A DNA stretch of 64,000 nt from the NCBI GenBank assembly GCA_963754875.1, contig CAVWHO010000008.1:224001-288000 (forward strand). Direction: 5' to 3'. Shown in pieces: positions 8,358 through 56,153 of the stretch. The notes under the pieces are model-generated. The model made no database searches and was not told the DNA's origin. It saw nothing but the letters and a program-made list of their open reading frames with translations. Numbering within the stretch: the stretch's first letter is position 1; every line of letters begins with the position of its first letter. Origin of the DNA: Nitrospirota bacterium. Lineage in GTDB: Bacteria; Nitrospirota; UBA9217. The position numbers and the translations under genes were made by a program.

Positions 8358-9572
8358 TCAAGATGAAGCAGACCCATAAGTACCCATCTTGAAGCTAAAC
8401 GTTCCCAACAGATGATAGTGGGGCGTAGGTGATATTGTCGAATCGTAATCAGTGAGCATAACATCAAACGTGCCGTTGACGTCGCCCGAGAGTGTTGAAT
8501 CTTGAGTAAAGGTGATGGTGCCGCTCTCCACTTTTTTCAAGGCTGATTTCTCGCCATTGAGAACGATGAAGGTCCCGGGGAACTTTTCATAGAACGTATT
8601 ATCCTCGATAGCAAACGTTTTGCCGCCGATGCTTGGCACGGTTCCATTCGTTTTAGGTATGTCGATCCGCATAACAGTCTTAAAATTCGGGTCCCACACA
8701 TTTTCCCCCACATCGGCCTGTATGGACCAGAAAGAATCATTGTTCGTGGAATAAAAGAAGTTCGGCCTGATGAGGCCGTACTCATCATACGTGACGGTAA
8801 AGCTGTCGGTCGTGTTTTGGGTCGTATCGGCATTCGACGGCACGACAACGGCGGTTGATGCATTCGAATTGCTCATCACGGTTGCGCCGGGTCCGGTTTG
8901 ACCGCCTCCCGAACCGCAGGCAGTCAACGATCCTAATGACATGACGGCGACCAGTACGGAGGTCACCAGCATTTGTTGTAAACGGATTCCGTGCTTAATA
9001 TGATGCGGCTGGACATATCCTTCCTCAATGAGCACCTCACCGAGCTTTTTCCGGCTTAAAACCTGTTTGAGGAGAGCTGCATCAAGCTGCTCACGGGTGA
9101 TGTGGCCGGCTGAGACCAGGATTTCGCCGAGCCGGAGGGGACCGGGAACAGGCTTCGGAGGCTGCTGGTTGTTTTGAAAATCGAGCAGCCTGTTCAGCTG
9201 CTGCTTGGTGAGCATTCCGTTGCGGACAAAAATCTCGCCGAGCTTGTCTCCTGTTTTCTTCTGCTCGTCCAAGGCTTGACTGAGTTCCGCCTCGGTGATG
9301 TGTCCGGCCTGGAGGAGCAACGCGCCGAGCATTTGACGGACTCCGGCCGCAGTTGTAACGGCTTGATCGGTATCATCGAGGCGTTCCTGCACTGCAAGAA
9401 CAGCATTGATGTCCGCGGGATCAAGCACTCCCATTCTGACCAGCACCTGCCCGAGGAGTTCATTGGTATGTTTCTGCTCCTCGAGAGCGCGCCCCAGGTC
9501 CGAGGAAGACATAAAACCGCCGTCAACAAGAATCTGTCCAAACGGCCGTTTAATACGCTTTTGCATCGACAT
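8358..9572 (-). CDS. Triple MshEN (c-di-GMP-binding type) protein with internal lipobox and extracytoplasmic C-terminal domain
   Basis: Six MshEN-like motifs, including the consensus match RLGEILVSAGHITREQLDAALLKQ; then MLVTSVLVAVMSLGSLTAC-GSGGG; ATG 9572 with AAGGAG RBS. Confidence 0.75.
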   Translation of the reverse strand: MSMQKRIKRPFGQILVDGGFMSSSDLGRALEEQKHTNELLGQVLVRMGVLDPADINAVLAVQERLDDTDQAVTTAAGVRQMLGALLLQAGHITEAELSQALDEQKKTGDKLGEIFVRNGMLTKQQLNRLLDFQNNQQPPKPVPGPLRLGEILVSAGHITREQLDAALLKQVLSRKKLGEVLIEEGYVQPHHIKHGIRLQQMLVTSVLVAVMSLGSLTACGSGGGQTGPGATVMSNSNASTAVVVPSNADTTQNTTDSFTVTYDEYGLIRPNFFYSTNNDSFWSIQADVGENVWDPNFKTVMRIDIPKTNGTVPSIGGKTFAIEDNTFYEKFPGTFIVLNGEKSALKKVESGTITFTQDSTLSGDVNGTFDVMLTDYDSTISPTPHYHLLGTFSFKMGTYGSASS

Positions 9573-9685
9573 TGCAGACTCCTTTGCGCCCCCTAAAGCG
9601 GCGCCCTGTTTTTCCAAACCAATGCTCCGCTGCGAATAGACCGGCCCTTCGATGGACCAGCCTTCCCACTTACAGAACCATTATA

Positions 9686-10237: not shown

Positions 10238-13200
10238 TTACTGTCCGCTGAACCACTTTACCGCATCACGAACGCTCACCTGATCGAACTTGAGCCGCAG
10301 CTTGATAAAGGGCCCCTCGCTCGTGAAGTCGGACTGTCGAGAAATCACGGTCTTTGAAGCCCGAGAAATTGTATCCCACACTGACCCAGATGTTTTTACC
10401 GGCGTTGTAACCAACCGATGCCCCGGTGCCGTATATCATCTGGTCAACGCTCCATGAGTGCATCATGAGCTCCCGCAGACCGATGTCCCACTTCTTCGTG
10501 ACATCGTACCTGGCTTCGAGACCGGTGAGGTCGGTGTATCCCCGGTAGTCGTTCTGGTCGATGGTTTCCTGGACATACTTGGAGCCGTACTGCACCGAGA
10601 CCTGCGTTCTATCGTCTGTCCTAATGTTCGCGACGAAGTTATTGACCAGGCGCCAACTGTTGTCCTCAATACTCCCCCCGCCATGCTGATCGTTGAGAAG
10701 ATAATCGAGGCGGTCGAGGATTATGAAGCGCGTCTCTGCAGGACGGTACGCAAGAGAAAGACGGAGATCGCTGTTCTGCTGCATCAGCCCGCTTACTGCT
10801 GCGCTCCGGAACGCCTGCAGTCCCGCGGCAAGACCCAGCCCTTCCGCACCTCACCGTTGGACCCGACGAACACGCCGAACTTGTCCTCCGACGTCGAAAC
10901 ACGGTCCTCGACCCGCGCTGTCCAGGACCACTTCTCCTCACGGTACCCCACGCCGAGAGAAACTGCGGTAAAGTCTTCCGTCGTGCCGACGGCCGGCGGG
11001 ACGTTGGTGTTGAAGATATACGGGGCGGTGCTGCTATCCGTGCTCACGCTCGTATTGCGGAGCGTCGTGCTGCGGTCCAGGCCCGCGTCAACGCTCCACT
11101 TCTTCGTGATCTGCCAGGACTGCTTCAATCCCGTGGTGGAGAAGAGCCGCATGCCGTTCTCCGTTGACTGCTGTTCCATCGTTGAACCGACCTGGCCGCC
11201 TGTCCACGGCGCTGCCTTGATCCCGATCCGGGAGGTCTCGGTGTCGATGCCCGACCCCTGCGTCCATTCCTGGTCGGCGAAGAACGTGGCGGTGTCGCTC
11301 AGTTTGTAGTCCGCGCCGACCGTCGTCTTTGTCGGGAAATCGACATTGTCGTTTGAGCCGACAGACTGATCACGGCTCACGCGCAGCGCGAGCCGTTCGG
11401 TGAGCTGGTACTTCGCGCTCGCAAAAAACTGGTCGGACCGGTAGGACTGGCCCATGCGTGAGCGTATCTTCCGCGCTGCGCACGCCGGCCAGGAGATCGT
11501 ACTTGCCCGACGTGTATCTGCCGCGAAGTTCCGCCATGTCCCGAACCGCGCCGGTGGCGAGAACATTCTGCTGGAACACTTCCCCGCCTACGGACCAGAG
11601 TTTGTCGAGCCGGTAGTTGAGGTCTGCACCGACCTTTCGCGTGCCCGTTTCGCTGTTGTTCTGCTGGCCGAGACCAAAGCCGCTCGATTGTTCGCGCACG
11701 TAAGCCTTCCCGTCCATCTTTTCGGAGCGGTGGGAAAGTTCTGTCAGGTAGGCGGACCCGTCATTCGCAATCCCGTCTTCATTGGTGTTCGATGTGGCAA
11801 TTTCCGTCTTGATCTGCGTATGCTCGTTCACCTTGACGGTGGCGTCGACACCGGTGAGATGTCCGACGCCTCCATTGTCTTCCTCGTGAATGTGCGTGGC
11901 GCCGATCTCGACTTTGTTGTTCAGCACACGCACGGCGCCGCGGCCGCCGTAGGTATAGGAATCTCCGGATGCGCCGAAAATCTCATACCGGACCACGATG
12001 AAGATGGGGTTAAAGTTCGCATCGGTGTTGAACACCGGGGACTTGAAAAAGATGGTGCCGGTATCGTAGTCGATGGAGTAATCGAGATACCGGGCGAGCG
12101 GCTGAGAAGAGAGGATCACCTCGCTCCGGTACCGGTCTCTCGTTTCTATGACCACCGTTTCCGAATTGAGCACGATGTTCTTCCGCGACAGCTGGTAGAG
12201 ACCGGACGTGCCGTCGCCGGGGATCTCGTCCTTTACAAAGGTCTGGTCGTTCTTGCTCGCGAACAGCGTGTAGTTGAAGTGGTCCGACTTCATCTCCGAT
12301 TTGACGCCGGTCATCTGACGGCTGTACCGGGACAATTCAGTCATCGTCAGGCCCGTGTCATAGTCGCCGAAGAGGGCATAAAACTGGTCGCGTTCGATCT
12401 TGACGTAAAGGGAGCGGGAGCTGGCCGCGTCGTTGCCCTGCAGCGTACCATCGCCGTACAGGGTATAGTACTTGTTCGGATCGATGGTTTGATAGAGGCC
12501 GTTCTGGTCGCTGTGCACCGCGTTTGCTGCTGTCGTAGGCCAGGGTAAGCAGCCACTCGCCCTTGATCCTGCCTTTAGCATAGAAGGCCAGACGATCATC
12601 TTCGAAGTACTTGTCATCGCCTCCCCCGGAGCTAAAGGTCTCCATGTTGCCTTTCACTACATTGTATCCCACCGTGCCTTCGGCGAGACCGACCAGGACC
12701 CAATCCCGGTTTTCAGGCTTGAGCCAGGTGCGGATTTCCTGGGTGGTGCCGTCGGCAACCTGGAAGCGAAGGACTGCTTCACCGGTCTGCGTGGTCGGAA
12801 CAAGCTCGATCATCGCCACGCCGTCATCGCCGATGAGATAGCGGTATCTATCGGTATTCGGGGCGATGAGTGGTGATTGTTGAAGTTCATCAGCGCGCTG
12901 CTGGGGAATATACGGAGGATCGATGAAATAATCGGCCCGAACACCCTCCCGGGCAGGGTGCCCATCCTTATCCAGAAGCTGGACTGCAAGAATTATCGGG
13001 TTTTTGCCGTCCGCAACGAGCTTCGATCTCTCAGGCAACAGTACCGCCTTTACTGGCGGCCCTGAATAGTGTACGGTCCGCTGCAACCTCTTGATCTCGG
13101 AACCGGAACCGTCTGAGAGAACGAGTTCGAATCTGTTGTCCCCCTCCTGTAGATGGATCCCGCGCCAGAAACTGATGGCGACAGTGCCGTCAGATTTTTT

Positions 13201-16200
13201 AATCATCCCTTCATAATGAAGAGGATCCACTACGTCGCCATTCAAAAGGAGCTTCGGTTTCTGGCCCGGATCGTGTTTTATGGCAATTCTCATGCTCGCA
13301 ATATTGGGACGGTAGCCATCAACAGGCCAGAGCCACTCCAGCCCCGGGGCTGCTTTTTCTACCCAGGCCGTATCGTAGTCAGGCATGGTCTTATTGTCAC
13401 CAACTGTGTGCATCGGCTCCGATTGTGGATTCTCCACCCATACTTCGCCTTGCGCCAGGCCGGTGACCGGGACGGTCTTCATTCCGCTCGTTTCCTTGTC
13501 GTTGCGGATATAGGTCCAGGCGGAATCCTTGCGGGTGTCGACTCTGAACTCCACGCGGCGGTTCTGCGCCCGTCCTTCTGCGGTCCTGTTTGTCGCAATC
13601 GGATCGTCAGGTCCCTTCCCGACGATCGTGATCTGATCCGGGGCGAGCCGGAGGGCCTCGGCAATGACCTTGGCGACCGTCTTGGCGCGGCTTCGCGACA
13701 GCGCGTAATTATCCGGAAACTCCTTGCTGGCCCCGGGCCGGATAGCGTTGGAATCGGTATGACCGGTAACGGTGATATGCTCGATCTTTCTTGATTTCAA
13801 TTGTTCAACGATCTTTTCTATTTCCTTCCGGTCGCTTTGGGACAGGTCCGCCTTCAGCGTAGTCGAACTTGGGATGGAACACGGCGTCGGGTTCACTCAT
13901 CTGACGCTTCAGCTATAGCGGACAAGGTTCGTGTCAGCCACGGGCGTCTTCACTCCTTTTGCCGCCGGAGTGTCGAAAACCAGGAACGCCTTCGTGGACA
14001 GATTTCCCTCAACGCCCTGCGCCGGCGCTGTCGCGAGGAACACGACGGACCCCTCCCAGCCGGCGGGCCGCTCGCCCAGACGGTAGGTCAGGACGCCGTC
14101 GCCGAGGTCAGGATCAGGGACCCGGCCGTCATTCAGACAGCTGCTTCCCGCCGCGTACGTTACGCCGTCCGGCATCATCACGATCAGCCGGAGATTCCGC
14201 ACAGGGACCGCTCCCACATGCAGGTTGGCCGCGTAGGCGACGGTGTATTGGCCGTTCGCGTCCGGGAGACAGCAATTCTCATGCACGAAGGGCACCATGG
14301 CCGCATAGTCGTTATGGCCGTTCACGTCCGGCCTCGCGGTCCCGGTCTGGACCGTGGCCGGGGAATTCTTCTTCAGTTCGCCGAAGCAATGCGCGCCGAA
14401 GGTCCACGTCAGGGCCGTAGCCAGGGAAGCCCCCGGCTCAGCGTCGGCATGGTTGATCGACCCGGTCTGGGTCGTGACCAGGGAAGTCCGCAGCTCAAGG
14501 CCGACCTCGCCGGTCTGCTTCGCCTTCGGAGGGCGGGGCGCAAGATGGAAATCGGCCCTCCACAGCGACCCGCCCTGCAGGTCCACGAACTGCGAAAATG
14601 GCCGAGCCCGCAAACCGGGTGTTGTCCTCGCACTGTTCAGGCTCATATTGCTCGGGCACGTGACCCGTATCGAGCTGCACCACGTGGGTCCCGGCCTGAA
14701 CAGCCGCGAAGTGGTACATCCCGTTCTTGTCGGTCACGACATAGGACCCGTCCTCGAGGAAAATGCGGACCCCCGCGATGCCGCGCCCGTTGTCGCCGCA
14801 GCCTTCGAGGACTCGGCCGACAATGGTCGTTTTGCTCATAAAGAGGTCCTCGGTCACCAGCACCGTGGCCGCGGCCGTGTTGGATACCGCGCCGAGCGAG
14901 CCGCTGGCCACGGCCGTGTTGACGGCCTTTCCGAGGCTCGCCCCCGCGCCCACCTCGGCCACGTAGGTGATGACCGCTTGTCCCGCAGCAACGAGATCGC
15001 CGACGCATAAAGGTGAGGCTCCGGCCGTCTGCGGAGATCGCGGGATCGGGTCCCGGCACGCTGTTCAGCCGCACTGAACCCTTACGGTACCGGAAGCCCA
15101 CCGGCAACCGGTCGGTAATGGTCACTCCCGGCGCCGGTGCGCTGTTATCAATGTTCTCCACCGTGAGCTGATAGGGAACAAAGTCTCCGATCGCCGCAGA
15201 GTCCTTTGCTGCGGACTTTGATCAGGTAGAGCCGCGAGCTTATCGGGTCCGCGGGAATGTCGATATGGATCGCGGGACCGGCGTTCACCACGAACTGCTC
15301 GTCCCGCGACCCGGGGTCCACAATGGCAAAGGGCCCGCCCGACAGGGCCTGCAATGCGGCCGTGGCAACGGTGGAGGGCGCCCGGTATCCCGCGGGCGGC
15401 CGGACGTCGAGACGATAGTTTCCCGGCTTGATGAACGGGAAACGGTATCCGCCCGGCGACATAGGAATAGACCTTTCCGCTGCTGTCCACGGCCGTTCCG
15501 CCGGTGGTCACGTGGCCGGGAAGGTCGCGACACCGTCATCGCCGTACACGCTGGCCGGACCGCCCGTGGACGACGTCCACGAGGGTGACGGTAAGCGCCG
15601 TCAACAGGCTGGCCTGTCGAGCTGTTGAACACGATGCCGTAGGGATCGACCAGCGCTGCGATGGAATGCGTGTCCGTCGGGTCCACGGCATCGGTGTAGG
15701 AGGCCGTAACGCGCGAGTCGTTCACCATGTTCAGAAGACCGTTGTTGCTCGCGACGGGTTGGGAACTGGACTGTATAAAGCCGATGAACACGCCGGTGTT
15801 CGGCCCGGTCTCCGTGAGACGCAGCACTTCCGTGTCCCCGGTCTTGTCGTCGTGGACGGTCACCACGACCGTTTCCGCGACGGCGGGATCGTTGTTCTGG
15901 TCTCCGTCGGTCAGGCGTATGAAGACCGGCTCGCCCGCGTGATACTGCGTCGCCGGGACGAGCGGTACCGTGCTGGGTGAGATCGATGGGCGCGGTAGAT
16001 CCTGCAGGAACCGGCGCGCCTAGAGGCACGAAAGGGTCCGGCCAGGCTTCCGCTGGGACTGTAGGACGTCGGCGGGACCGGAACGAGCTGCGCGCCGGGC
16101 GTCGTCGGGCGCGTACTGGAGGAATTCAATGACCGCTGTGGTCCGCTGGACCGTGGTCGTCACCGATACGGTGTTCGACGCTGCGGTCACAAGACTCCCA

Positions 16201-16436
16201 GCGAAGCCATTGGTATACGTTGCATTCGCGATGTTGCTGATGATCGTGCCGGATGGCGTGATCGACCATCCGGCGGATGAAAACAGATGGATGAATAGGA
16301 ATGATAACAGAAAAATAACGAGGAAAGAAGAAACAGGGACCGCTCCGGCACGCGGACGCACCACGGCCGTGGCTTCACCCGGACGGATGCAGCCCTCGCC
16401 GTTTCTTGCGCGATATGTGTTGAAGCAGTCCCTCAT
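10238..16436 (-). CDS. Giant outer-membrane protein (signal peptide, DUF11/SdrB-like domains, OmpA-like peptidoglycan-binding domain, C-terminal beta-barrel), split by about a dozen frameshifts
   Basis: Consecutive ORF fragments join into one protein of ~2000 aa: DUF11 (ITDRLP...AVNTAVA), OmpA (GHTDS...RAQNRRVE), amphipathic beta strands; reconstructed end IKLRLKFDQVSVRDAVKWFSGQ with stop at 10238. Confidence 0.8.
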
Positions 16437-16448
16437 AAAGTATCAATC

Positions 16449-16473
16449 TCCCCGCCCCTCATCAGGGCGGGGA
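16449..16473 (-). terminator. Intergenic stem-loop after the putative major subunit gene (mRNA stabiliser or partial terminator)
   Basis: tccccgccc (16449-57) / gggcgggga (16465-73) 9-bp stem; no U-run. Confidence 0.5.
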
Positions 16474-16486
16474 ATATCACATCTCC

Positions 16487-17590
16487 TTATTGGATAACAA
16501 CCTGATATTTGATTGTGGCGGTAGTTCCTTGAGCAACGGTGAGGCCGGAAACCGTCATTTTGCCCGCAGTAAAATCAGCGCCATCAGCATCACTTGCGTT
16601 CGTTTTGCAAACATTATTCACGACGATACCCGACCCTGCAGCACACGGGCTGGTACCGTCATTAAACTGGGTGTTAAAGGCGATATACCCATTGGGGGCA
16701 TTAATCATAGCACTCAAGTCGTCCGTGATTACAACATTGGTCGCGTCAGCAGCGCCTAATGCGTTGGATACTGTTACGGTGTACGTGACAACTGCTCCAG
16801 GTATCGCCTTGGGGTTCCCGCCTGTACTTGTAGAACCGCTTATGGGGTCCGAATACACAGTAGCCGTCTTGTTTATGGTCAAGCCTGCGGCGGTAACTGT
16901 AAAGCGTCCGCTTGCGGAATGTTTTCCGTCGTGCAGCCCGTCACCAGTAGCGGTCCCTGCTGCGTCGCCGAATATCGTCATTACAACATTGAGATTGGCG
17001 GACTTGAGCCCGGCAGTCTGGGTAGAGGGGGTCAAGGTCCCCGCATCGACCGCTGTTGCCAGGAGGTCGTAATCCGTATATTGAGCATTTGTAGCGGTGG
17101 CCGGTATGTCACCGACGACCAGTACGGTGAAGGTTGCGCCTGACGCGATGTCACCGAAGGTGCTGGCATCAGTGTACAGTGTATCGCCGGCGTCGTATTG
17201 GCCGTTACTGTTGTTATCACGATAAATCTTCGCACCGGTCAAAGACCATGTGTTTGTCGACTTCGACACGGGTGACAGCGCAAAACGCATGGCCGTGTTG
17301 CTGCTATTTGTCACGAGGAACTGGATCGCCTGGTAGGTTGAGCTCGGGGCGCTGGTCACGTCGCTTTGTTTCGTGACGGTCAAGTAGATCACTCTGTCAA
17401 CCATGAAGGTGACGGTGTTCCCCAGCACCGCGGTTTGCGCTACCGTGCCGACCGTATAATTCACTGTTGCCTGGTTCGAGATGGAGACCCCTGCGGCCGT
17501 GTTCGCGGCCTGCGCGAACTTCGGGACCGCCAGGGCAATCGCCGCGAACAGCACTATTGCCGCTATCCTATACATACTTTGCTTCTTCAT
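16487..17590 (-). CDS. Secreted DUF11-domain pilin-like protein (putative major subunit)
   Basis: ATG 17590 with GGAGG RBS; signal peptide ending AQA; Ca-binding-like DNNSNGQYDAGD; C-terminal DUF11 (INKT..IPGAVVTYTV..ITDDL); paralogue of 18283..19332. Confidence 0.8.
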   Translation of the reverse strand: MKKQSMYRIAAIVLFAAIALAVPKFAQAANTAAGVSISNQATVNYTVGTVAQTAVLGNTVTFMVDRVIYLTVTKQSDVTSAPSSTYQAIQFLVTNSSNTAMRFALSPVSKSTNTWSLTGAKIYRDNNSNGQYDAGDTLYTDASTFGDIASGATFTVLVVGDIPATATNAQYTDYDLLATAVDAGTLTPSTQTAGLKSANLNVVMTIFGDAAGTATGDGLHDGKHSASGRFTVTAAGLTINKTATVYSDPISGSTSTGGNPKAIPGAVVTYTVTVSNALGAADATNVVITDDLSAMINAPNGYIAFNTQFNDGTSPCAAGSGIVVNNVCKTNASDADGADFTAGKMTVSGLTVAQGTTATIKYQVVIQ

Positions 17591-17769
17591 TGTTTCCTCC
17601 TTGTTTTTTAAATACGGTAATGTAAATTGTTTCAAATTATCGTTCTCAACATGTCAGGTTTCCTTTCCACATCCTAAGAATCATTCGCATAATACGTCTC
17701 CGCTCTTATGTCCTTGAAAAGCAATTTCCGTTTTTCCATGATCATATCCTCCAAATTGAATTTAATCGT

Positions 17770-18270
17770 CTACTTAATCTTGGCCTTGAAAGAAACACTG
17801 CCCGAACCTCCTGCGGGGAGCGGCCTGGTCAGTGTCCACCTGATGCCGTTGTAGTCTTCCGCTCTGGCCTGGCGCACCATTCCCTGGGCGTTCTTGATTA
17901 TCAGTTTCTCCGGCGCGTTGTAGGTCTTCCCGCCGTCCGTTGAAAACTCGATGCGGGTGTTGTTCCCTTCCGCGCTGCCGTCGAGATAGGTCATATGCTC
18001 GTCAATGGGATTGGTGATTACAATGCCGTCGGCGGGCCGCTTTCCGGTGTTGGTATAGTGCGTCGTAAAGATCACCGTGTCTCCCGGCACCGTCGTCGCT
18101 TTCGCGACATCTACCCGTTTAACTAACTTCTCCCCTTTTTGGTTTTTCTCCGCAACCTCGACTTGCGCGACAGACTTGAGCACTATTGCCCCTTTCTGCT
18201 GCGCCCACGCCGCCATCGGCGCCAATAGCGCCAGCGTCAAAACCACCTGTAATATTTTTTTCATCGTCAT
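17770..18270 (-). CDS. Small secreted single-DUF11 protein
   Basis: Signal peptide ending AWA; VPGDTVIFTTHYTNTG..VITNPID..VSFKAKIK. Confidence 0.8.
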   Translation of the reverse strand: MTMKKILQVVLTLALLAPMAAWAQQKGAIVLKSVAQVEVAEKNQKGEKLVKRVDVAKATTVPGDTVIFTTHYTNTGKRPADGIVITNPIDEHMTYLDGSAEGNNTRIEFSTDGGKTYNAPEKLIIKNAQGMVRQARAEDYNGIRWTLTRPLPAGGSGSVSFKAKIK

Positions 18271-18282
18271 CTCCTCCCTCGT

Positions 18283-19332
18283 CTATTTGATCTTCACATC
18301 AAAAGTTATCGTCTGTACTGGCGAAGCGTTCGTCAGATCGCCAAGTTTTACGGTCACCGTATTGGTCGTTGTGACTCCCACGTCCCCGGCGTCCGTGTCC
18401 GCCGCGTCGGTGAGGGCCGTGTTGTTCAGCCGGAGCGAATTAGCGATATATGTCGTGTTCACCGGCAGCGGATCGCTGATCACGACGTTTGTGGCTGTCC
18501 CGCCGCCCGTTGTCGTTGCCCCGATCGTGTACCGGAGTGTCGCTCCCGGGATGGGCTGGTTTCCGCCCCATTGGTCAAGGATTGTTACGGTCTTATTCAC
18601 GTTCACTTTCAATGCCGCGGTGGTCACGGTAAAGGTAGCGGCCGCGGAGTGTTTTCCGTCCCGCGCCCCGTCGCCGGGGGCGCTTCCCGCAGCGTCCAGA
18701 AACACCGTGTCCACTCCCGCGGTGTCGGGCCCGCTGGTCGGGGTGGAAACATTCAAGGTGCCCGCATCGACCGCCGTTGCCGCAAGGTCGTATGCTGCAG
18801 TCTCTCCGACCGTCAGGCCCGAAGGCGTATCGGCGACAATCAATACGGTTATCGATGCGCCGGTCGCAACGTCTCCAAAAGTGCCTGCGTCCGCATAGAG
18901 GGTGTCTCCCGCGTCCCAGGTGCCGCTGCTGTTATTGTCGCGAAAGATGCGCACATTGCTCATCGTCCACGTGTTCGTAGCCTTCGACACGGCCGCAAAG
19001 GAGAAACGCACGGCCGTATTGCTCATATTGGAGACGAGGAACGACACAGCCATGTTGTTCGAGGCCGGCGAGGTATTCACATCGGCGTTCTTGGTCACGA
19101 CCACGTTGACCACCCGGTCAACCATGAAACTGGTGGTCACGGACGTCGCGGAGCTTCCAACGCCGCCGAGAGTATACCTCACGGATGCAGTGTTCGTGAC
19201 AGCCGTGCCCGCGGCCGTGCCCGCGGCCAGGGCGTTGCCGGACGTGAACAGACACCCGATGAGGAATGCGACGATCGCCCAAAGGGTGCGCAATCTGGAT
19301 GCCCCTTTATTGTTGTGCGGAGTAGAATTCAT
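18283..19332 (-). CDS. Secreted DUF11-domain pilin-like protein (second paralogue)
   Basis: ATG 19332 with GAGGA RBS; signal peptide ending ALA; RDNNSSGTWDAGD; C-terminal DUF11 (VNKT..IPGATLRYTI..ISDPLP). Confidence 0.8.
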   Translation of the reverse strand: MNSTPHNNKGASRLRTLWAIVAFLIGCLFTSGNALAAGTAAGTAVTNTASVRYTLGGVGSSATSVTTSFMVDRVVNVVVTKNADVNTSPASNNMAVSFLVSNMSNTAVRFSFAAVSKATNTWTMSNVRIFRDNNSSGTWDAGDTLYADAGTFGDVATGASITVLIVADTPSGLTVGETAAYDLAATAVDAGTLNVSTPTSGPDTAGVDTVFLDAAGSAPGDGARDGKHSAAATFTVTTAALKVNVNKTVTILDQWGGNQPIPGATLRYTIGATTTGGGTATNVVISDPLPVNTTYIANSLRLNNTALTDAADTDAGDVGVTTTNTVTVKLGDLTNASPVQTITFDVKIK

Positions 19333-19370
19333 TCGGTCCTCAGTCACGAACAGCTGTCCACAAGATCTTC

Positions 19371-22300
19371 TCAATTGAGCTGCACCCTGAATTTGACGGT
19401 AAAGTTGGCATTGCCGCCGTTCAATGTCCCTTCAGGATTGATACAGAGACCCTTCACATTTGCGTCAAAATTGCCCGTCGGCGAGTAGGTGAAGTTGCCG
19501 CATGCATTGGGCGGAGCCAGAACCGCAGGAAGCGGATACGTAGTTGTATATTTCACGTCGCTTCCGTAACTGAACGTAAGTCCGCAGGCCGGCGACGCGC
19601 TGCACGAAAATAAGACGGGATCGCCGGAGACCGTGGAGACATACAGGGTCGTATTCGTGGGAATGGGGTCCGTAACAACGACGGAACTGCCGTCCGCGAC
19701 GCCGGTCCCGCTGTTCGTCACGGTTACGGTATATTCCAACACGGCGCCGGGGATGGCCCTTGCGCTGGTCGTTACCCCGCTGACGGGATCGGAGATGACC
19801 TGCACGGACTTCAGGACCATGATGTTCGGCATCAGCCCAACTCGGAACGTGCCGGTCCCAAGGTCCGAGATGGTACCTTCCGTTCCCTCGTTGGCGGTGA
19901 CGTTCACTGTCCAATAGCCGGTCGGGCCTGCTGCGGGTACGGTGTAGGCATACTCGTAGGTTTTGGTGCCCGTGGTAGAGGTAACGATGTTCGTCAGCGT
20001 TACTGCGCTCACGATGGCATTGTTGTTCGGGTCCTTGATCGTGATCTTCGTCGAGGAGATGTCGAAGGCACCGAAGGGATCGCTCACAGCTGTCCGCACA
20101 TAAACGGTCTGTCCGCCGATGTAGAAGCCGGAGACCGGGGTAGTCACGGCCGGATAGGCCGCACTGTAAGCGTTGACGCTGTTCACGCCGATCACGTTCT
20201 GAGAGGGCAGACTGACATTGGAAATGTTGCCACCGTTGGCCGGGGTAACGTTCACTCTGCGCGTGGTGCTTGCGGCACCGCTATTGGTGACTCTCAATAC
20301 CCAGGAGTTGCCCGTCGCGCAGGACATCGCAGAGGTCAGGGGCAGATTGAAGGGATAGGATGTCACCGTCCCCGTGAGAGCGAGGGTCCGGGACTGCGTT
20401 ATCAGCGTTCCCGGCGTCGCGGAACAAAACAGATCGACGATTACGGTGTAATTGTTACTGCTGTTGGTCGAGAGATTGAGGGATACCGGCACAGTGGCGC
20501 CGACAGCCGGGGAGATCGTGACCGGGGAGGCCAGGACTGGCAGTTCGGTCCAGCTTTGCGACGAACCCCTGTTGATCGCGACCAGCGGAGGCGCTCCCGG
20601 GGTAGGCGTTCTCGAAAGTGAGTAAGTCGGCGCGCTGTAAAGATACAGCGGCTTGCTGCCCGTCTGAGCAATGGACGAGGCCGACACCGTGATCGTCGGC
20701 GCTGCGGGCGCTGCGCCCGGACCTCCGGGGTTCGTGATCATTGCAGTATTGTCGATCGACGTGCCCGCTACGGTCCCGCCTGCTATCGTAGCAGATACGA
20801 CAATCGGGACATTCCCGTCCGCAGGGACCGATATGTTGGAAACCGTGAGCACTTGACCCGCAATATTGCACATCGCGCCCGAGGGACAGCTTGCTAATAA
20901 ACCCGTCAGCGTTGTAGGAAAGGTGTCCGTCACCGAAACTCCCGGGGCTGCCATGTGACCCGTCTCCTTCAGCATGATCGTGTACTGAATTACGTCTCCC
21001 GGGTTCTGGTCGCCGCCGTTGAGGTCTATCCATGTTTTTGTCGAAGTGGAAAGATCGGAGGGGACGGAAACGCTCACCGTGGCGCTGTCGTCGCTGGAGT
21101 TGTAGTCCGTAATTGCGCCCGGGACGACGAGGCTTGCGGTATTGCTGAGCAGGCTGGGAGCGCCAGCGCCCACGGTCCCGTTGATCGTATAGGTGACATA
21201 TCCGTTCTTGGGGAGGTTGGCGGTGGTATTGATGGCATTCCCGCTCCCCGAGGCCGCCCCGCAGGTTCCGCCTCCCGATCCCGCGCAGGTCCAGGCGACG
21301 CCGGTTATGGCCGCCGGCACGGTATCGAGTATGCCGACGCCGGTCGCCGTCACGTTGTTGGGGCCCGTATTGCTGGCGATGACGGTATAGCGGATCTGGT
21401 CGCCCACCGAAGCTGTTGTCGTCGATCCGGTCGTAATGTCCAAGAACGTCTTGGTGATCGCGAGGTCGATCGCCGAGGTCGTGTTCTGGTCGGTCACGAT
21501 CAGGTTGCGGATCTCGTGATAGTTGGTGGATCCTCCGGTGCTGGCGGCATAGCCGATCTTAAGCTGCTGCGTTGTCGTGATCGCCGGGAGCGCCTGGTTG
21601 GTGATCATCTGGGTAAAAACAAGCGGAGAGCTGTAACCGAATGAGACCCAGACATTGGCGACGGGATTGGGCGCCGGGCTGATCTGGATGCGCACATGGC
21701 GGTAATTCGGGCCGGTCTGAGAAGGTCTTGGCGAGCCGTTGAACCACAGCAGGCCGTTGTTAGCAGAGGTGGCGATCCAGGGATAGGACGCGGCTGACAG
21801 CGTTTGCCCAATGGCCCCTGCACCAAAACCGACCACGGAGCCCCGAAGCGTGATAGTATTTGGGACTGTATTGCTGTTGCCGTAGGCGCTGAGATACCGT
21901 CCTTCGCCGCAGTCGGCGAAATTACCGTATTCATCCACGCCGATCCCGATATAGCCGCCGCTGATCCCGGGAACATTTGAAGGAGCGGGGTTGCCGCAGG
22001 GACTGGTCGTCAGTTTCTGAGCATAACCAAGAGAGCCGCCGAAGGCGCCGATATTGAAGGCACCCACATTCGCGTCGAAGAGATAGACGCTGTAGCCGTC
22101 TGCGCCGGTCCCCCCCCAAGTGGCGTAATCAAACTCGACAAGGAGCCCAGCACTCAGGTCAAAGGCCGTGGTGTTGTAGGCAAACCCGGTCTGGTTGCCC
22201 GTATTGTTCGTCAGGCGCAGCCATCCCTGTCCCACCGGATCAATGGCGCCGCTTCCCGTCAGAATGGTGCCCCCCCCAAGGGTCCAGCCCGCGCTGTTCG

Positions 22301-22430
22301 TGTCGGTCATCGGTGCGTTGATGATGATTGCAGCTGAGGCATTCCCGGCAAGGCCCAAACTGAGGACAACAAGAATAAGGACCAGTATCCTCCGCGTTGA
22401 GTGAACAGCTGATGAAAAATGGCGGTACAT
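19371..22430 (-). CDS. Secreted adhesin with N-terminal L-type (legume-like) lectin domain and three DUF11 domains
   Basis: GWLRLT..GADG..GSLGY..IGVDEYGN..GYAASTGGSTNYHEI lectin motifs; DLAITKT, DLSTSTKT and VLKSV DUF11 starts. Confidence 0.82.
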   Translation of the reverse strand: MYRHFSSAVHSTRRILVLILVVLSLGLAGNASAAIIINAPMTDTNSAGWTLGGGTILTGSGAIDPVGQGWLRLTNNTGNQTGFAYNTTAFDLSAGLLVEFDYATWGGTGADGYSVYLFDANVGAFNIGAFGGSLGYAQKLTTSPCGNPAPSNVPGISGGYIGIGVDEYGNFADCGEGRYLSAYGNSNTVPNTITLRGSVVGFGAGAIGQTLSAASYPWIATSANNGLLWFNGSPRPSQTGPNYRHVRIQISPAPNPVANVWVSFGYSSPLVFTQMITNQALPAITTTQQLKIGYAASTGGSTNYHEIRNLIVTDQNTTSAIDLAITKTFLDITTGSTTTASVGDQIRYTVIASNTGPNNVTATGVGILDTVPAAITGVAWTCAGSGGGTCGAASGSGNAINTTANLPKNGYVTYTINGTVGAGAPSLLSNTASLVVPGAITDYNSSDDSATVSVSVPSDLSTSTKTWIDLNGGDQNPGDVIQYTIMLKETGHMAAPGVSVTDTFPTTLTGLLASCPSGAMCNIAGQVLTVSNISVPADGNVPIVVSATIAGGTVAGTSIDNTAMITNPGGPGAAPAAPTITVSASSIAQTGSKPLYLYSAPTYSLSRTPTPGAPPLVAINRGSSQSWTELPVLASPVTISPAVGATVPVSLNLSTNSSNNYTVIVDLFCSATPGTLITQSRTLALTGTVTSYPFNLPLTSAMSCATGNSWVLRVTNSGAASTTRRVNVTPANGGNISNVSLPSQNVIGVNSVNAYSAAYPAVTTPVSGFYIGGQTVYVRTAVSDPFGAFDISSTKITIKDPNNNAIVSAVTLTNIVTSTTGTKTYEYAYTVPAAGPTGYWTVNVTANEGTEGTISDLGTGTFRVGLMPNIMVLKSVQVISDPVSGVTTSARAIPGAVLEYTVTVTNSGTGVADGSSVVVTDPIPTNTTLYVSTVSGDPVLFSCSASPACGLTFSYGSDVKYTTTYPLPAVLAPPNACGNFTYSPTGNFDANVKGLCINPEGTLNGGNANFTVKFRVQLN

Positions 22431-22574
22431 CAAATGATGCCCCCTCCTGCCGAGCGTTTTACTGAAACTTCACGCGCACAGTTATGGCGTTATAGCGTTC
22501 TACAAAAAATATCTGATAAATCTGTAATTCGGCAATCCCCCCCGGGGTTGGCGGACTACAACTAAGGTAAGACA

Positions 22575-22603
22575 ATTTTAGGATAAATATTATTTTTTGT
22601 CAA
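22575..22603 (-). promoter_or_regulatory. sigma70 promoter of the DUF11 operon
   Basis: TTGACA (22603-22598), 17-bp spacer, TAAAAT (22580-22575). Confidence 0.75.
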
Positions 22604-27359: not shown

Positions 27360-30068
27360 CTACGGTCCGTGCATGAGTTCCCGTAGTACATACGGCAGAA
27401 TTCCCCCATGCTGATAATAATCGACCTCGATCGGGGTATCGATCCGCGACAGCAGCTTGACTTCCTGGCGAACTCCCCCGTGTCTTTTGACGAGAAGGCT
27501 GATTTCCTGTTGCGGCATCAGATTGTTCAAGCCGACAATATCGAACTCTTCATCTCCGATGAGCCGCAGTGATTGGACGGAATCGTTGCCTTTGAACTGC
27601 AGCGGCAATACGCCCATGCCTACGAGGTTGGAACGGTGGATACGCTCGAAGCTTCGTGCAATAACGGCGCGCACTCCGAAAAGTCTGGTGCCTTTGGCTG
27701 CCCAATCACGCGATGATCCTGTCCCGTATTCTTCTCCACCGAAGACCACCGTCGGCGTGCCTTGGGCCAGATATTTCATTGCAGCGTCATAGATCGACAT
27801 CTGCTCTCCGCTGGGCTGAAACAGGGTAATGCCGCCTTCCACGCGCGCGCCGTCTGCCTTCGGGAGGCACCATGAGGTTCTTGATGCGCACGTTCGCGAA
27901 GGTGCCGCGAATCATCACATCGTGATTGCCCCGGCGCGTGCCGTAGCTCTGAAAATCGGTCTTGGCACGTTGTTTTCGAGCAGGTATTTTCCCGCGGGAG
28001 TGGTCTCCTTGATGGAGCCTGCCGGACTGATATGGTCGGTCGTGACCGAATCGCCGAAGATGCCGAGCGCCCGGGCTCCGAGCGATGTCGTTGACGCGCC
28101 CGGCTGCATCGAGAAGTCCATGAAGAACGGAGGTTCCGCAATGTACGTGGATTTCGGCCAGTTATAGACTTCCTCGGAAACCGAGGCCACGTTGTTCCAC
28201 AAGACATTGTCCTTGGTGAAGTCCGCGTAGAGACGCTGGAAGGTTTCCGGGTCCGTGGCATACTTCATCACGGACGCAACTTCGGCATTGCTCGGCCAGA
28301 TGTCTTTGAGGTAGACCGTTGCTGCCGTCCTTGCCGATGCCCAGAGGATCTTTCTCCATGATTCATGAGCACGGTCCCGGCTATGGCATAGGCCACGACA
28401 AGGGGCGGGCTCATCAAAAAGTTGGCGCGCAGGTTCGGATGGATGCGCGCTTCGAAGTTGCGGTTGCCGGAAAGGACCGATGCGCAGACGAGATCATTCT
28501 GCAGAATGGCCTCTTCCGTCCCTTCATCCAGGGGGCCTGAATTGCCGATGCAGGTGGTGCAGCCGTAGGCAACGATATTGAAACCGAGCTTTCCAGGATA
28601 AGGCAGGAGACCGGCTTTTGCAGATATTCGGTCACGACTCGCGAGCCCGGCGCAAGGGACGTCTTGACGTGCTTTTTTACGACGTGCAGGCCTTTCTCCA
28701 CAGCCTTCTTTGCCAGCAGACCGGCAGCGAGCAGCACCGCACGGATTGGAGGTGTTGGTGCAGGAGGTGATGGCGGCGATGATCACATCTCCGGAGCCGA
28801 TGTCTATGCCGTCCTTTGTTTTGAAGCGCGCTGCAATGTCTTCGGACTTCTTTGCAAATCCGTTTTCCGTTGTCGGCTTGACGAATAATTGGGACATCGT
28901 ATTTTTCAGAGCGGGAAGTTCAATGCGGTCCTGCGGGCGTTTCGGCCCTGCAACGGAAGGTTTGATCGAAGAGAGGTCGAGTTCAAGGGTCCGCGTGTAA
29001 TCTATCTCTCCGGCCTTCGGGAATGCCGTACATTCTCTGGGCTGTGTAATAGGACTTGCAAGCGGCGACTTCCTCGTGAGTACGTCCGCTGCTGCTGAGG
29101 TACTCGACGGTCACGTCGTCGATCGGGAAGAAGCCCATGGTCGCGCCGTACTCCGGCGACATATTCGCGATCGTGGCGCGGTCAGGCACGCTGAGGGATG
29201 CGGTGCCTGATCCGAAAAATTCGACAAAGGCGCCGACGACCTTATTTTTCCGGAGCATCTCGGTGATGGTCAGCACGAGGTCGGTGGCAGTGACGCCTTC
29301 CCGGAGTTTTCCGGTCAGGTTCACCCCCACCACATCAGGAGTTAGGAAGTAGAGCGGCTGACCGAGCATACCCGCTTCCGCCTCAATGCCTCCCACGCCC
29401 CAGCCGACCGAGCCGATACCATTGATCATCGTCGTATGGCTGTCGGTGCCGACGAGCGTATCGGGATAGTAGACATCGTTCTTGTCATGCACGCCGCGCG
29501 CCAGGTATTCAAGGTTCACCTGGTGAACGATGCCGATGCCCGGCGGGACTACCTGGAAGGAATGGAATGTGTTCATGCCCCACTTCAGGAACTCGTACCG
29601 TTCCCGGTTGCGCTTGAATTCCATTTCCATATTGATCCGAAGCGCATCAGGATTTCCGTAGGAGTCTATCTGCACGGAGTGGTCCACGACCAGATCGACA
29701 GGGACGAGCGGTTCGATGATGCCCGGATTTTTGCCCATCCTGCGGGCCGCGCCGCGCATTGCCGCCAGATCGCACAGGAGGGGTACGCCGGTAAAGTCCT
29801 GGAGCAGGATGCGTGCAACGACAAAAGGAATTTCCTCTATGCGCCGTCCCTGGGGCGACCAGGCAGCAAGCTGTTTAACGTGATCTTCTGTTATCTTCTT
29901 GCCATCGTAATTACGCAGCACCGATTCGAGCACGATCCTGATCGAAACGGGCAAATGCGAGATCATGCCGATCCCCGCTTTTTCCAGAACAGGCAGGGAA
30001 TACAATTTCCCCTTTTTCCCGTTGCCCAGGCTGAAATCTCGGAGCGTATTGAAGAGATTATGGGTCAC
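27360..30068 (-). CDS. acnA: Aconitate hydratase A, interrupted by several frameshifts
   Basis: [51 protein letters not shown] and [10 protein letters not shown] motifs spread over overlapping ORF fragments. Confidence 0.88.
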
Positions 30069-30190
30069 TGTGTCTCCATTTTTTATCGCACGAAGGCACG
30101 AAGCCACAAAGAAGTACACTGAAAGGCAGGTGATCCTCCCCTTCGTGGCTTCGCGCCTTCGTGTGAGACCGACTGCATCTGTTTTTTGGT

Positions 30191-55511: not shown

Positions 55512-55589
55512 ACTAGCAAGAATTGCAATATAAACTCAAAAAAGTGATTTGATTTCGGGTCATGACAATGCTATAAGAAAGCAACATTA

Positions 55590-55760
55590 CATATCAGTCT
55601 GTTCAAGTTAAGGGAATCCCGTGAAATCCGGGAGCGGACCCGCCGCTGTAATCCTGGCCCCATCGAGGGCCAAACCGTTTACCAAGGAAATTGCCACTGA
55701 CCAGCGAAATGGTTGGGAAGGCCGGTAAAGGGGGGAGAGCCAGAAGACCTGCTTGGATAT
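55590..55760 (+). ncRNA. Cobalamin riboswitch 1
   Basis: aagggaa..gtgaaatcc..cccgccgctgt..gccactg..gggaaggc..agccagaagacctg (B12 box). Confidence 0.9.
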
Positions 55761-55813
55761 TCTTTTACACTGTCTTCGGAGTTAAGACCACGTGTGGATT
55801 ACGGTATTTTTCT

Positions 55814-55899: not shown

Positions 55900-56063
55900 C
55901 TGTGGTGACAATTGCCTTTTCAGGAATGAGAAAACGGAAAGGGGTGAAAATCCCCTGCTGTCGCGCAACTGTGATGGAAACGAAAGCTGATTATGCCACT
56001 GCCCTCTTCGGGTGGGAAGGCCGGCGAGTAGGTTGTCCAGAGCCAGGAGACGTCTCATTCCAA
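55900..56063 (+). ncRNA. Cobalamin riboswitch 2
   Basis: aacggaa..ggtgaaaatcc..gcaactgt..gccactg..gggaaggc..agccaggagac; closing stem ggaatgaga/tctcattcc. Confidence 0.88.
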
Positions 56064-56153
56064 TAACCGCGCTGAAGGAGATGACCATGAAAAGAAAAAA
56101 TCAGACGTTGTCGTAGAGGGCAATGCAAACGCATGTAAACTCGTTACTCTTTG

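Follow-up and report, generated by a model that had tools for sequence, protein, structure and literature searches.

The window examined here, a stretch of 64,000 nucleotides from a Nitrospirota bacterium, carries on its reverse strand an operon with the gene order tip, adaptor, small protein, major pilin and an outer-membrane protein of ~2050 amino acids (Table 1). Within the limits of each contig, relatives titled Nitrospirota, Deltaproteobacteria and Desulfuromonadales have the same order. Judged from its sequence, the promoter match upstream of the tip gene is likely to be the operon promoter; it is the best of 8 sites, 7.6 being expected by chance at the 9-of-12 level. No terminator match separates the small gene from that of the major pilin, and the operon has no Rfam match.

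Table 1. Features of the operon and of the small protein that it encodes, in window coordinates
Feature	Position	Strand	Remarks
Likely tip adhesin	19371..22433	-	Lectin-like at the N-terminus; complete DUF11 repeats; ends in a reactive acceptor (IMVLKS, VVTDPIP)
Likely adaptor or minor pilin	18283..19374	-	Asn donor strand and Lys/Asp acceptor (VISDPLP)
Small acceptor-only DUF11/CLIPPER-fold protein	17770..18270	-	Isopeptide Lys and catalytic Asp both absent
Likely major pilin (ATG 17590)	16487..17635	-	N-terminal donor hairpin with Asn11; middle domain; Lys213 and Asp262 in the C-terminal acceptor (mature numbering)
~2050-aa outer-membrane protein	10241..16480	-	N-terminal donor strand, DUF11, SdrD-B-like, OmpA
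Sigma-70-like promoter match	22575..22603	-	TTGACA-17-TAAAAT, 11/12; upstream of tip gene
Sec-type signal peptide of small protein	18202..18270	-	Residues 1-23 (AWA|QQ), read by eye
Lys32	18175-18177	-	One residue off the isopeptide-Lys register
Ser33	18172..18174	-	Isopeptide-Lys position; profile and homologue alignments
Protruding beta-hairpin	18109..18165	-	Residues 36-54; outside predicted donor interface; Gly46 in 99% of homologues
Asn87	18010..18012	-	Catalytic-Asp position; homologue alignments
SxDGG motif and second inserted hairpin RxA..Y[TH]IRW	17836..17943	-	Residues 110-145; most conserved part of the family

The CLIPPER domain 9IFR has a bond between Lys715 and Asn806 of one chain, presumably catalysed by Asp748 (PMC12617251, in the part available). 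The fibre genes of the operon carry Asn on donor strands, and Lys and Asp on acceptors. Adaptors and major pilins have the Asn donor, plus Lys and Asp where the sequence was covered; the tip acceptor has both Lys and Asp in eight of nine loci and, in the sequence covered, Lys only in the ninth. A donor strand was found in the tip adhesin in none of the nine loci. An Asn donor stands at the start of the outer-membrane protein in 5/6 cases, by pattern, and the C-terminal region of this protein is presumed to be a β-barrel.

In the window, the outer-membrane gene is spread over several frames; intact open reading frames of ~1975–2076 amino acids are present in loci L001, L002, L005, L007 and L008. 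The contigs of close relatives in two runs have single-base differences at several of the breaks, and the contig piece that spans most of the small gene has no gap across it. Assembly error is a likelier cause of the breaks than decay, since a neighbouring aconitase gene (window 27360–30119, reverse strand) is fragmented too, into no fewer than four pieces; the prpD and citrate-synthase-family genes beside it are intact. Located 3′ of the operon is a gene (8358–9617, reverse strand) with repeated N-terminal motifs (LG..L...G.I) and a Pfam DUF4388 match, and a gene of this type likewise follows the operon in L001 (18046–19383) and L002 (18054–19391). It is possibly a regulator; its motifs presumably resemble the c-di-GMP-binding motifs of MshEN. 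Elsewhere in the window (55588–55770 and 55903–56071, forward strand) there are tandem cobalamin riboswitch aptamers, scoring 82.8 and 79.4 bits.

The open reading frame of the small gene encodes 166 amino acids. Translation is likely to start at the second ATG (18264), giving 164 amino acids, with an anti-Shine–Dalgarno duplex of −11.4 rather than −7.3 kcal/mol; the corresponding duplexes of the major pilin and tip genes are −11.4 and −11.2 kcal/mol. There is no conserved lipobox, a lipobox-like pattern occurring in only 2 of 143 homologues and in both within the hydrophobic region. The preliminary description of the locus had regarded the protein as acceptor-only, which is borne out: the sequence has no N-terminal donor strand, there is no C-terminal anchor, and in 139 of the 143 homologues the chain goes no further than the last acceptor strand. 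It had also been described as Lys/Arg-rich. This holds for the protein in the window (14.9% compared with 3–5%, net charge +6) but not for the family, which is charge-rich rather than basic, with a median of 25% charged residues (10% in pilin acceptors), a median net charge of −2 and a positive net charge in 56/143. A general rule that a basic protein binds acidic pilins by charge was rejected on the basis of that family median. The composition resembles that of a soluble protein and appears unlike that of any fibre subunit. One homologue, P0249, is a secreted tandem two-domain form of 319 amino acids with Met at the Lys site of both domains; it could bind two donors.

As judged by sequence, the small protein is a member of the DUF11 family, yet is not an isopeptide-forming CLIPPER domain. 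It matches DUF11 (PF01345) with 25.8 bits, the cut-off being 24.6, and TIGR01451 with 32.4 bits, the cut-off being 24. The AlphaFold2 model of the protein alone is a single domain of 143 residues with a pLDDT of 94, which aligns among CnaA pilin and adhesin domains and is a CnaA-like Ig β-sandwich. The structural match to 9IFR (Z 8.1, rmsd 3.0, 90 residues) has rank 7, tied with other, unrelated Ig-like folds, and its alignment ends at residue 109 of the 123-residue chain. In contrast to 9IFR, the small protein is a stand-alone half-domain without the first-strand Lys, the catalytic Asp or the same-chain Asn-bearing terminal strands, and with two inserted hairpins. Foldseek gave generic Ig matches only, and the ESM Atlas DUF11 clusters only. 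The PDB sequence search found no relative (best E 0.25 with the protein and 0.0038 with its profile, the latter for the repeats of the grappling-hook protein GhpA), and the same search with the pilin profile or the tip repeats found nothing. No PapD family was among the 4 Pfam matches at E ≤ 0.1. A search for fusions gave 25 longer matches, nearly all of them tandem adhesins; the fusions P0344 (pilin plus small protein) and P0214, each with a signal peptide inside the chain, appear to be read-throughs of gene calling.

Homologues were compared in three alignments. A1 contains 68 of the 70 close homologue matches, frameshifted and truncated ones being omitted. A3 (n = 144) contains the query, 44 other close matches and 99 of the 150 rows of a second search, from which 41 long tandem proteins, 1 duplicate and 9 fragments or fusions had been dropped. 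The pilin alignment A2 (n = 119) contains the major pilin and 118 of 120 rows, with major and adaptor types mixed. A3 was pooled with 90 and 51 proteins from further loci, giving 281 distinct sequences of 285; these are kin rather than independent samples, and the alignment of their first strand is less certain in distant rows. Inspection by eye finds no Lys at the isopeptide-Lys position of L034 and L047 either, two rows that are visibly misaligned.

The preliminary description had drawn attention to the sequence IVITNPID, where fibre subunits have VISDPLP, VITDDL or VVTDPIP. All of these motifs are present, and Asn87 aligns with Asp262 of the major pilin (HHalign 96%, E 1.6e-9). Alignment of the homologues, which had been proposed as a check, revealed that this Asn is prevalent (214/281) though not universal (Asp in 24, other residues in 43), so that the homologues do not mostly carry Asp. 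The Asn is kept in 67/68 close homologues, in 130/144 sequences of A3 and in all 58 alphaproteobacterial rows; none of the 30 Deinococcota rows has Asn or Asp, the site being L, G, I or V in every one. As controls, the pilins of A2 have Lys in 119/119, Asp in 119/119 and the donor Asn in 111/119, and complete tandem repeats picked by their Lys and Asn (with either Asp or Asn allowed at the third site) have Asp in 219/219. On these sequence comparisons, Asn at the Asp site is not due to chance.

The claim that the first-strand Lys is present (VLKS) did not survive. In reactive domains, the first strand reads hydrophobic-x-hydrophobic-x-Lys, and the small protein has I29-V-L31-K32-S33-V-A35. HHalign settled the Asp/Asn column but left the register of the first strand undecided. 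When the first-strand profile was slid against that of the pilins, placing Ser33 on the Lys site scored +4.2 and placing K32 there scored −3.5; against the repeats the scores were +1.9 and −5.7, with the Lys column counted. Position 33 is Lys in 0/281 homologues, and position 32 is Lys in 87/281. By these registers, the resemblance of VLKSV to the IMVLKSV of the tip is a coincidence. Locus L031 offers an internal control from close by: the acceptor encoded upstream has the sequence MSLSKSA...LDNIP, and in that of the small protein, LTLKMTA...SDPVP, the Asp is kept and the Lys site is Met. It is the loss of the nucleophilic Lys that is, from the alignments, the constant feature of the family.

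The bond in 9IFR uses Lys715, so a protein without this Lys cannot form that bond; and because Lys is absent throughout the family, changing Asn87 to Asp should not by itself reactivate the small protein. The earlier proposal that the protein is non-reactive is consequently supported beyond its original argument, the nucleophile being missing as well as the Asp. Of the chemical reason then given, the replacement of Asp stands, but the Lys is not kept and the Asn is not universal. Lys37 accompanies Asp87, in 14/24 Asp homologues versus 33/214 Asn homologues. Lys37 is taken to be structural, as 14% of normal repeats likewise have a Lys at +4, alongside the true Lys, and as residue 37 lies outside the predicted donor interface; from sequence, there may yet be a reactive subgroup among the Asp87/Lys37 homologues. 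Subgroups which keep Asp87 and tend to have Lys37 (L027–L031, L164–L170) may reflect an ancestral state or a shifted reactive Lys.

The feature is real and widespread. Among 61 relatives, 10 have pilin matches (E ≤ 1e-20), each with exactly one adjoining small gene, 3 have the small gene and pilins too divergent for this threshold, and 48 have neither. Genome G173 has three pilins and still only one small gene. In the reverse test, the small gene was found in 7/8 genomes with a pilin match; genome G432, a candidate for a pilin without the small gene, was discounted, its contig terminating inside the pilin. A pilin-like gene is adjacent in 85/90 and in 41/51 further loci, the latter viewed with 1.5 kb flanks. 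Full-length matches occur in 22/201 genomes of the phylum of the window and in 18/301 genomes of the phylum of a Sphingopyxis genome; in the phylum of a Deinococcus genome 67/81 match at E ≤ 1e-10, a few via pilin acceptors. On Thermus, Synechococcus, Kovacikia and Novosphingobium plasmids, the small gene lies beside donor-bearing genes.

Two genomes depart from this arrangement. In G495, the small gene is 350 kb from the pilin–barrel pair, which fits action in trans, and there are three scattered tip-like genes. These belong to a dispersed system (G495:C1; L183, L184, L190–L192) in which the tip-like genes differ in their N-termini, which suggests interchangeable tips. Genome G415 has an intact small gene, yet no pilin, tip or barrel match with the queries used. 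This orphan (G415:C1:1052117-1052575, L186), which precedes genes resembling trpB and accD (as judged by eye), counts against a strict coupling to pilus genes. On the Thermus brockianus plasmid pTB1 (L047, 8827–18347), the operon starts with the small gene and comes directly after a cluster of carotenoid and photolyase genes of the same strand, making light or stress co-regulation possible. In the cyanobacterial and Deinococcota loci L046, L049, L045 and L047, the outer-membrane gene is apparently two open reading frames and the pilins are 740–910 amino acids long.

A complex was predicted between the small protein and residues 1–205 of the pilin, i.e., its donor and middle domain only. Its score was 0.84, compared with 0.01 for the best of 3 controls, where the mark applied is reached by 116/157 solved pairs and 2/215 mismatched pairs; the runs agree in at least 96% of contacts, and the partner has a pLDDT of 90. 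In the predicted complex, pilin donor residues 13–17 pair with residues 82–86 of the small protein, which by extrapolation would put donor Asn11 beside Asn87 and Pro88. The 25 best contact pairs include L31 and S33 and not K32, although all three are within interface range. Such a pass is expected from likeness to an intact CLIPPER domain: since the complex amounts to two halves of one domain, it shows an open, compatible groove rather than binding in cells. The earlier suggestion that donor strands are shielded is upheld to the extent that the model binds the donor. The groove-lining residues I29 and L31 are hydrophobic in 144/144 homologues, so this face is still built for covering.

The best-conserved residues, G46, S110, D112, G114, G130, A135, T141, R144 and W145, lie outside the interface, as does the region of the SxDGG motif and second hairpin. 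Some of these residues belong to the core; others suggest a second partner, plausibly the barrel. As the most conserved residues are outside the groove, the main selected function may involve another partner.

Starting from what is directly established, namely the missing residues, the donor/acceptor anatomy of the operon, the single copy and the co-occurrence, the small protein is, on balance, probably a soluble periplasmic, non-covalent donor-strand chaperone, as the sequence and the predicted complex suggest. Once exported, each pilin would have its donor hairpin free and its socket reactive, and could become welded in the periplasm, either with itself or with neighbouring subunits. The small protein would occupy the donor hairpin without bonding and so block premature welding; the donors held would be the Asn-bearing hairpins of the pilins and perhaps also that of the outer-membrane protein. 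The conserved outer surface of the small protein would then dock on the outer-membrane protein, where the donor would move over to the last subunit's Lys/Asp socket, the isopeptide bond making the step one-way and freeing the chaperone. Asn87 could serve as a neutral stand-in which keeps the hydrogen bonding and does not activate the donor Asn. The model leaves the open sockets of the pilins unshielded, and these are the part that known chaperones cover. Possibly, the pilin shields itself, as the full major pilin folds alone at pLDDT 96.5, with its donor hairpin ordered. An argument that the protein is periplasmic because it is more conserved than the pilins was dropped, its conservation being little above that of the acceptor domain of the adaptor; its full-length identity exceeds that of both pilins in 8/9 loci, a comparison not used because the loci were chosen by similarity to the small protein.

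Among the rival readings, a guard of the terminator and a non-covalent cap share the same chemistry. As such a guard, the small protein might mainly bind the donor of the outer-membrane protein, so that this donor does not weld to a pilin and growth does not stop early; it would thereby set fibre length instead of escorting each subunit. The outer-membrane protein does start with a pilin-like Asn donor strand, the conserved surface beyond the groove points to another contact, and there is one copy per system regardless of the number of pilins. However, the strong ribosome-binding site and the usual place just before the major pilin fit higher amounts, if weakly, and in the model it is the pilin donor that fits the groove; this explanation is considered unlikely.

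It is improbable, too, that the protein is a non-covalent cap or nucleator on the free donor of the first subunit, acting as a primer or in place of the tip. Its acceptor-only anatomy is like that of the tip, it binds a donor in the predicted complex, and acceptor-type end pieces have been proposed for archaeal tafi (TafF; PMC11821415, in part). Yet the operon already encodes a reactive acceptor-only tip, a non-covalent piece would weaken a fibre that is otherwise covalent, and the composition is unlike that of all fibre subunits. A chain of tip, adaptor, n major pilins and barrel would use every donor and socket without the small protein, so a permanent cap would be redundant. Of the two roles first offered, chaperone or cap, the chaperone is favoured because the reactive acceptor-only tip gene is already present.

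Quite improbable is a chaperone of the PapD/FimC kind, with hairpin 36–54 lent to the open acceptor groove of the pilin, with or without holding of the donor. The hairpin protrudes, has 19 residues with a near-invariant Gly46 and is free in the predicted complex; the pilin sockets need cover; and this is the mode of known chaperones (PMC11821415 and, for ElrE, bioRxiv 10.64898/2026.10.17.759780, both in part). Against it, most of the hairpin is charged and, Gly46 excepted, little conserved, and the hydrophobic groove and conserved Asn87 would be left unexplained. Least probable is a degenerate pilin domain that serves the envelope in some other way, that closes its groove with its own hairpin or by self-dimerisation and that lost its Lys and Asp simply because no bond is made: the G415 orphan, the tandem form P0249, the L, G, I or V of the Deinococcota rows and the ability to fold alone would suit it, but not the close linkage to donor-bearing pilins and the joint occurrence with them in several phyla, the constancy of Asn in alphaproteobacterial and close homologues, or the score of the predicted donor complex.

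The favoured chaperone can be set beside known systems. FimI/PapH terminators enter the fibre base by a donor strand. The small protein has neither a donor strand nor a C-terminal anchor and so differs from such terminators and from TafF; by sequence, the outer-membrane protein is in a position to fill the donor-bearing terminal role. PapD/FimC chaperones have two domains. The small protein is like them in being likely periplasmic, in being encoded by a single-copy operon gene and in probably preventing donor-strand pilins from polymerising before the outer-membrane platform. It is unlike them in having one domain and no PapD Pfam match and in serving pilins with a Lys/Asp/Asn triad. Most importantly, PapD/FimC donate a strand to the acceptor groove of the pilin (PMC11821415, in part), whereas the small protein is an acceptor in its own right and is predicted to receive the donor. 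ElrE of the Enterococcus WxL pilus is also a donor-strand-exchange chaperone unrelated to PapD, but it is membrane-anchored, primes its pilin by donor-strand complementation and belongs to a Gram-positive, sortase-anchored system (same preprint, in the part available). The archaeal thread is a donor-strand filament (PMC9715654, in part), with isopeptide bonds according to the title of a preprint, and haloarchaeal TafF is a modelled acceptor of the TafA donor strand (PMC11821415, in part); these archaeal systems have no outer-membrane platform, and TafF is a membrane anchor and terminator rather than a soluble, disarmed acceptor.

The working principle proposed here is that of SpyDock, a split isopeptide domain without its catalytic acid: SpyDock is SpyCatcher2.1 E77A S49C, which captures and releases its tag reversibly (PMC6465384, in the part available). 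SpyDock is engineered, derived from CnaB2 and altered only in the acid, whereas the small protein is natural, CnaA-like and also without the Lys. A search of the openly available literature found no description of the small protein or operon. The available part of PMC12617251 mentions DUF11 domains without a bond and does not contain the words 'donor', 'operon' or 'split'; its Table S2, on bond-less DUF11 domains, may bear on novelty. Three other sources, each seen in part, were set aside: PMC11494351 (neither DUF11 nor isopeptide), PMC3711429 (DUF111, irrelevant) and bioRxiv 2025.08.19.671072 (a tandem DUF11 hook).

Perhaps, and with a little less than an even chance, the small protein is a natural pseudo-catcher: a chaperone that evolved from a pilin acceptor by losing first the Lys and later the Asp, that holds donors, the reverse of PapD/FimC, and hands them over at an unrelated outer-membrane platform. 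It would then be the dedicated assembly factor of a sortase-free, covalent kind of pilus that is as yet undescribed and whose range takes in Nitrospirota, sphingomonads, cyanobacteria and the majority of sampled Deinococcota. The operon offers a natural tag, catcher and non-reactive dock, in a fold orthogonal to SpyTag/SpyCatcher. Being single-copy, short and detected by one profile across several phyla, the small gene is the best marker of the system, and its carriers include cultured Thermus, Deinococcus, Sphingopyxis and Novosphingobium, which makes the pilus accessible to testing. A fibre that welds itself needs a means to stop welding in the wrong place. The small gene is a concrete candidate answer, with a chaperone logic unseen in the literature searched.
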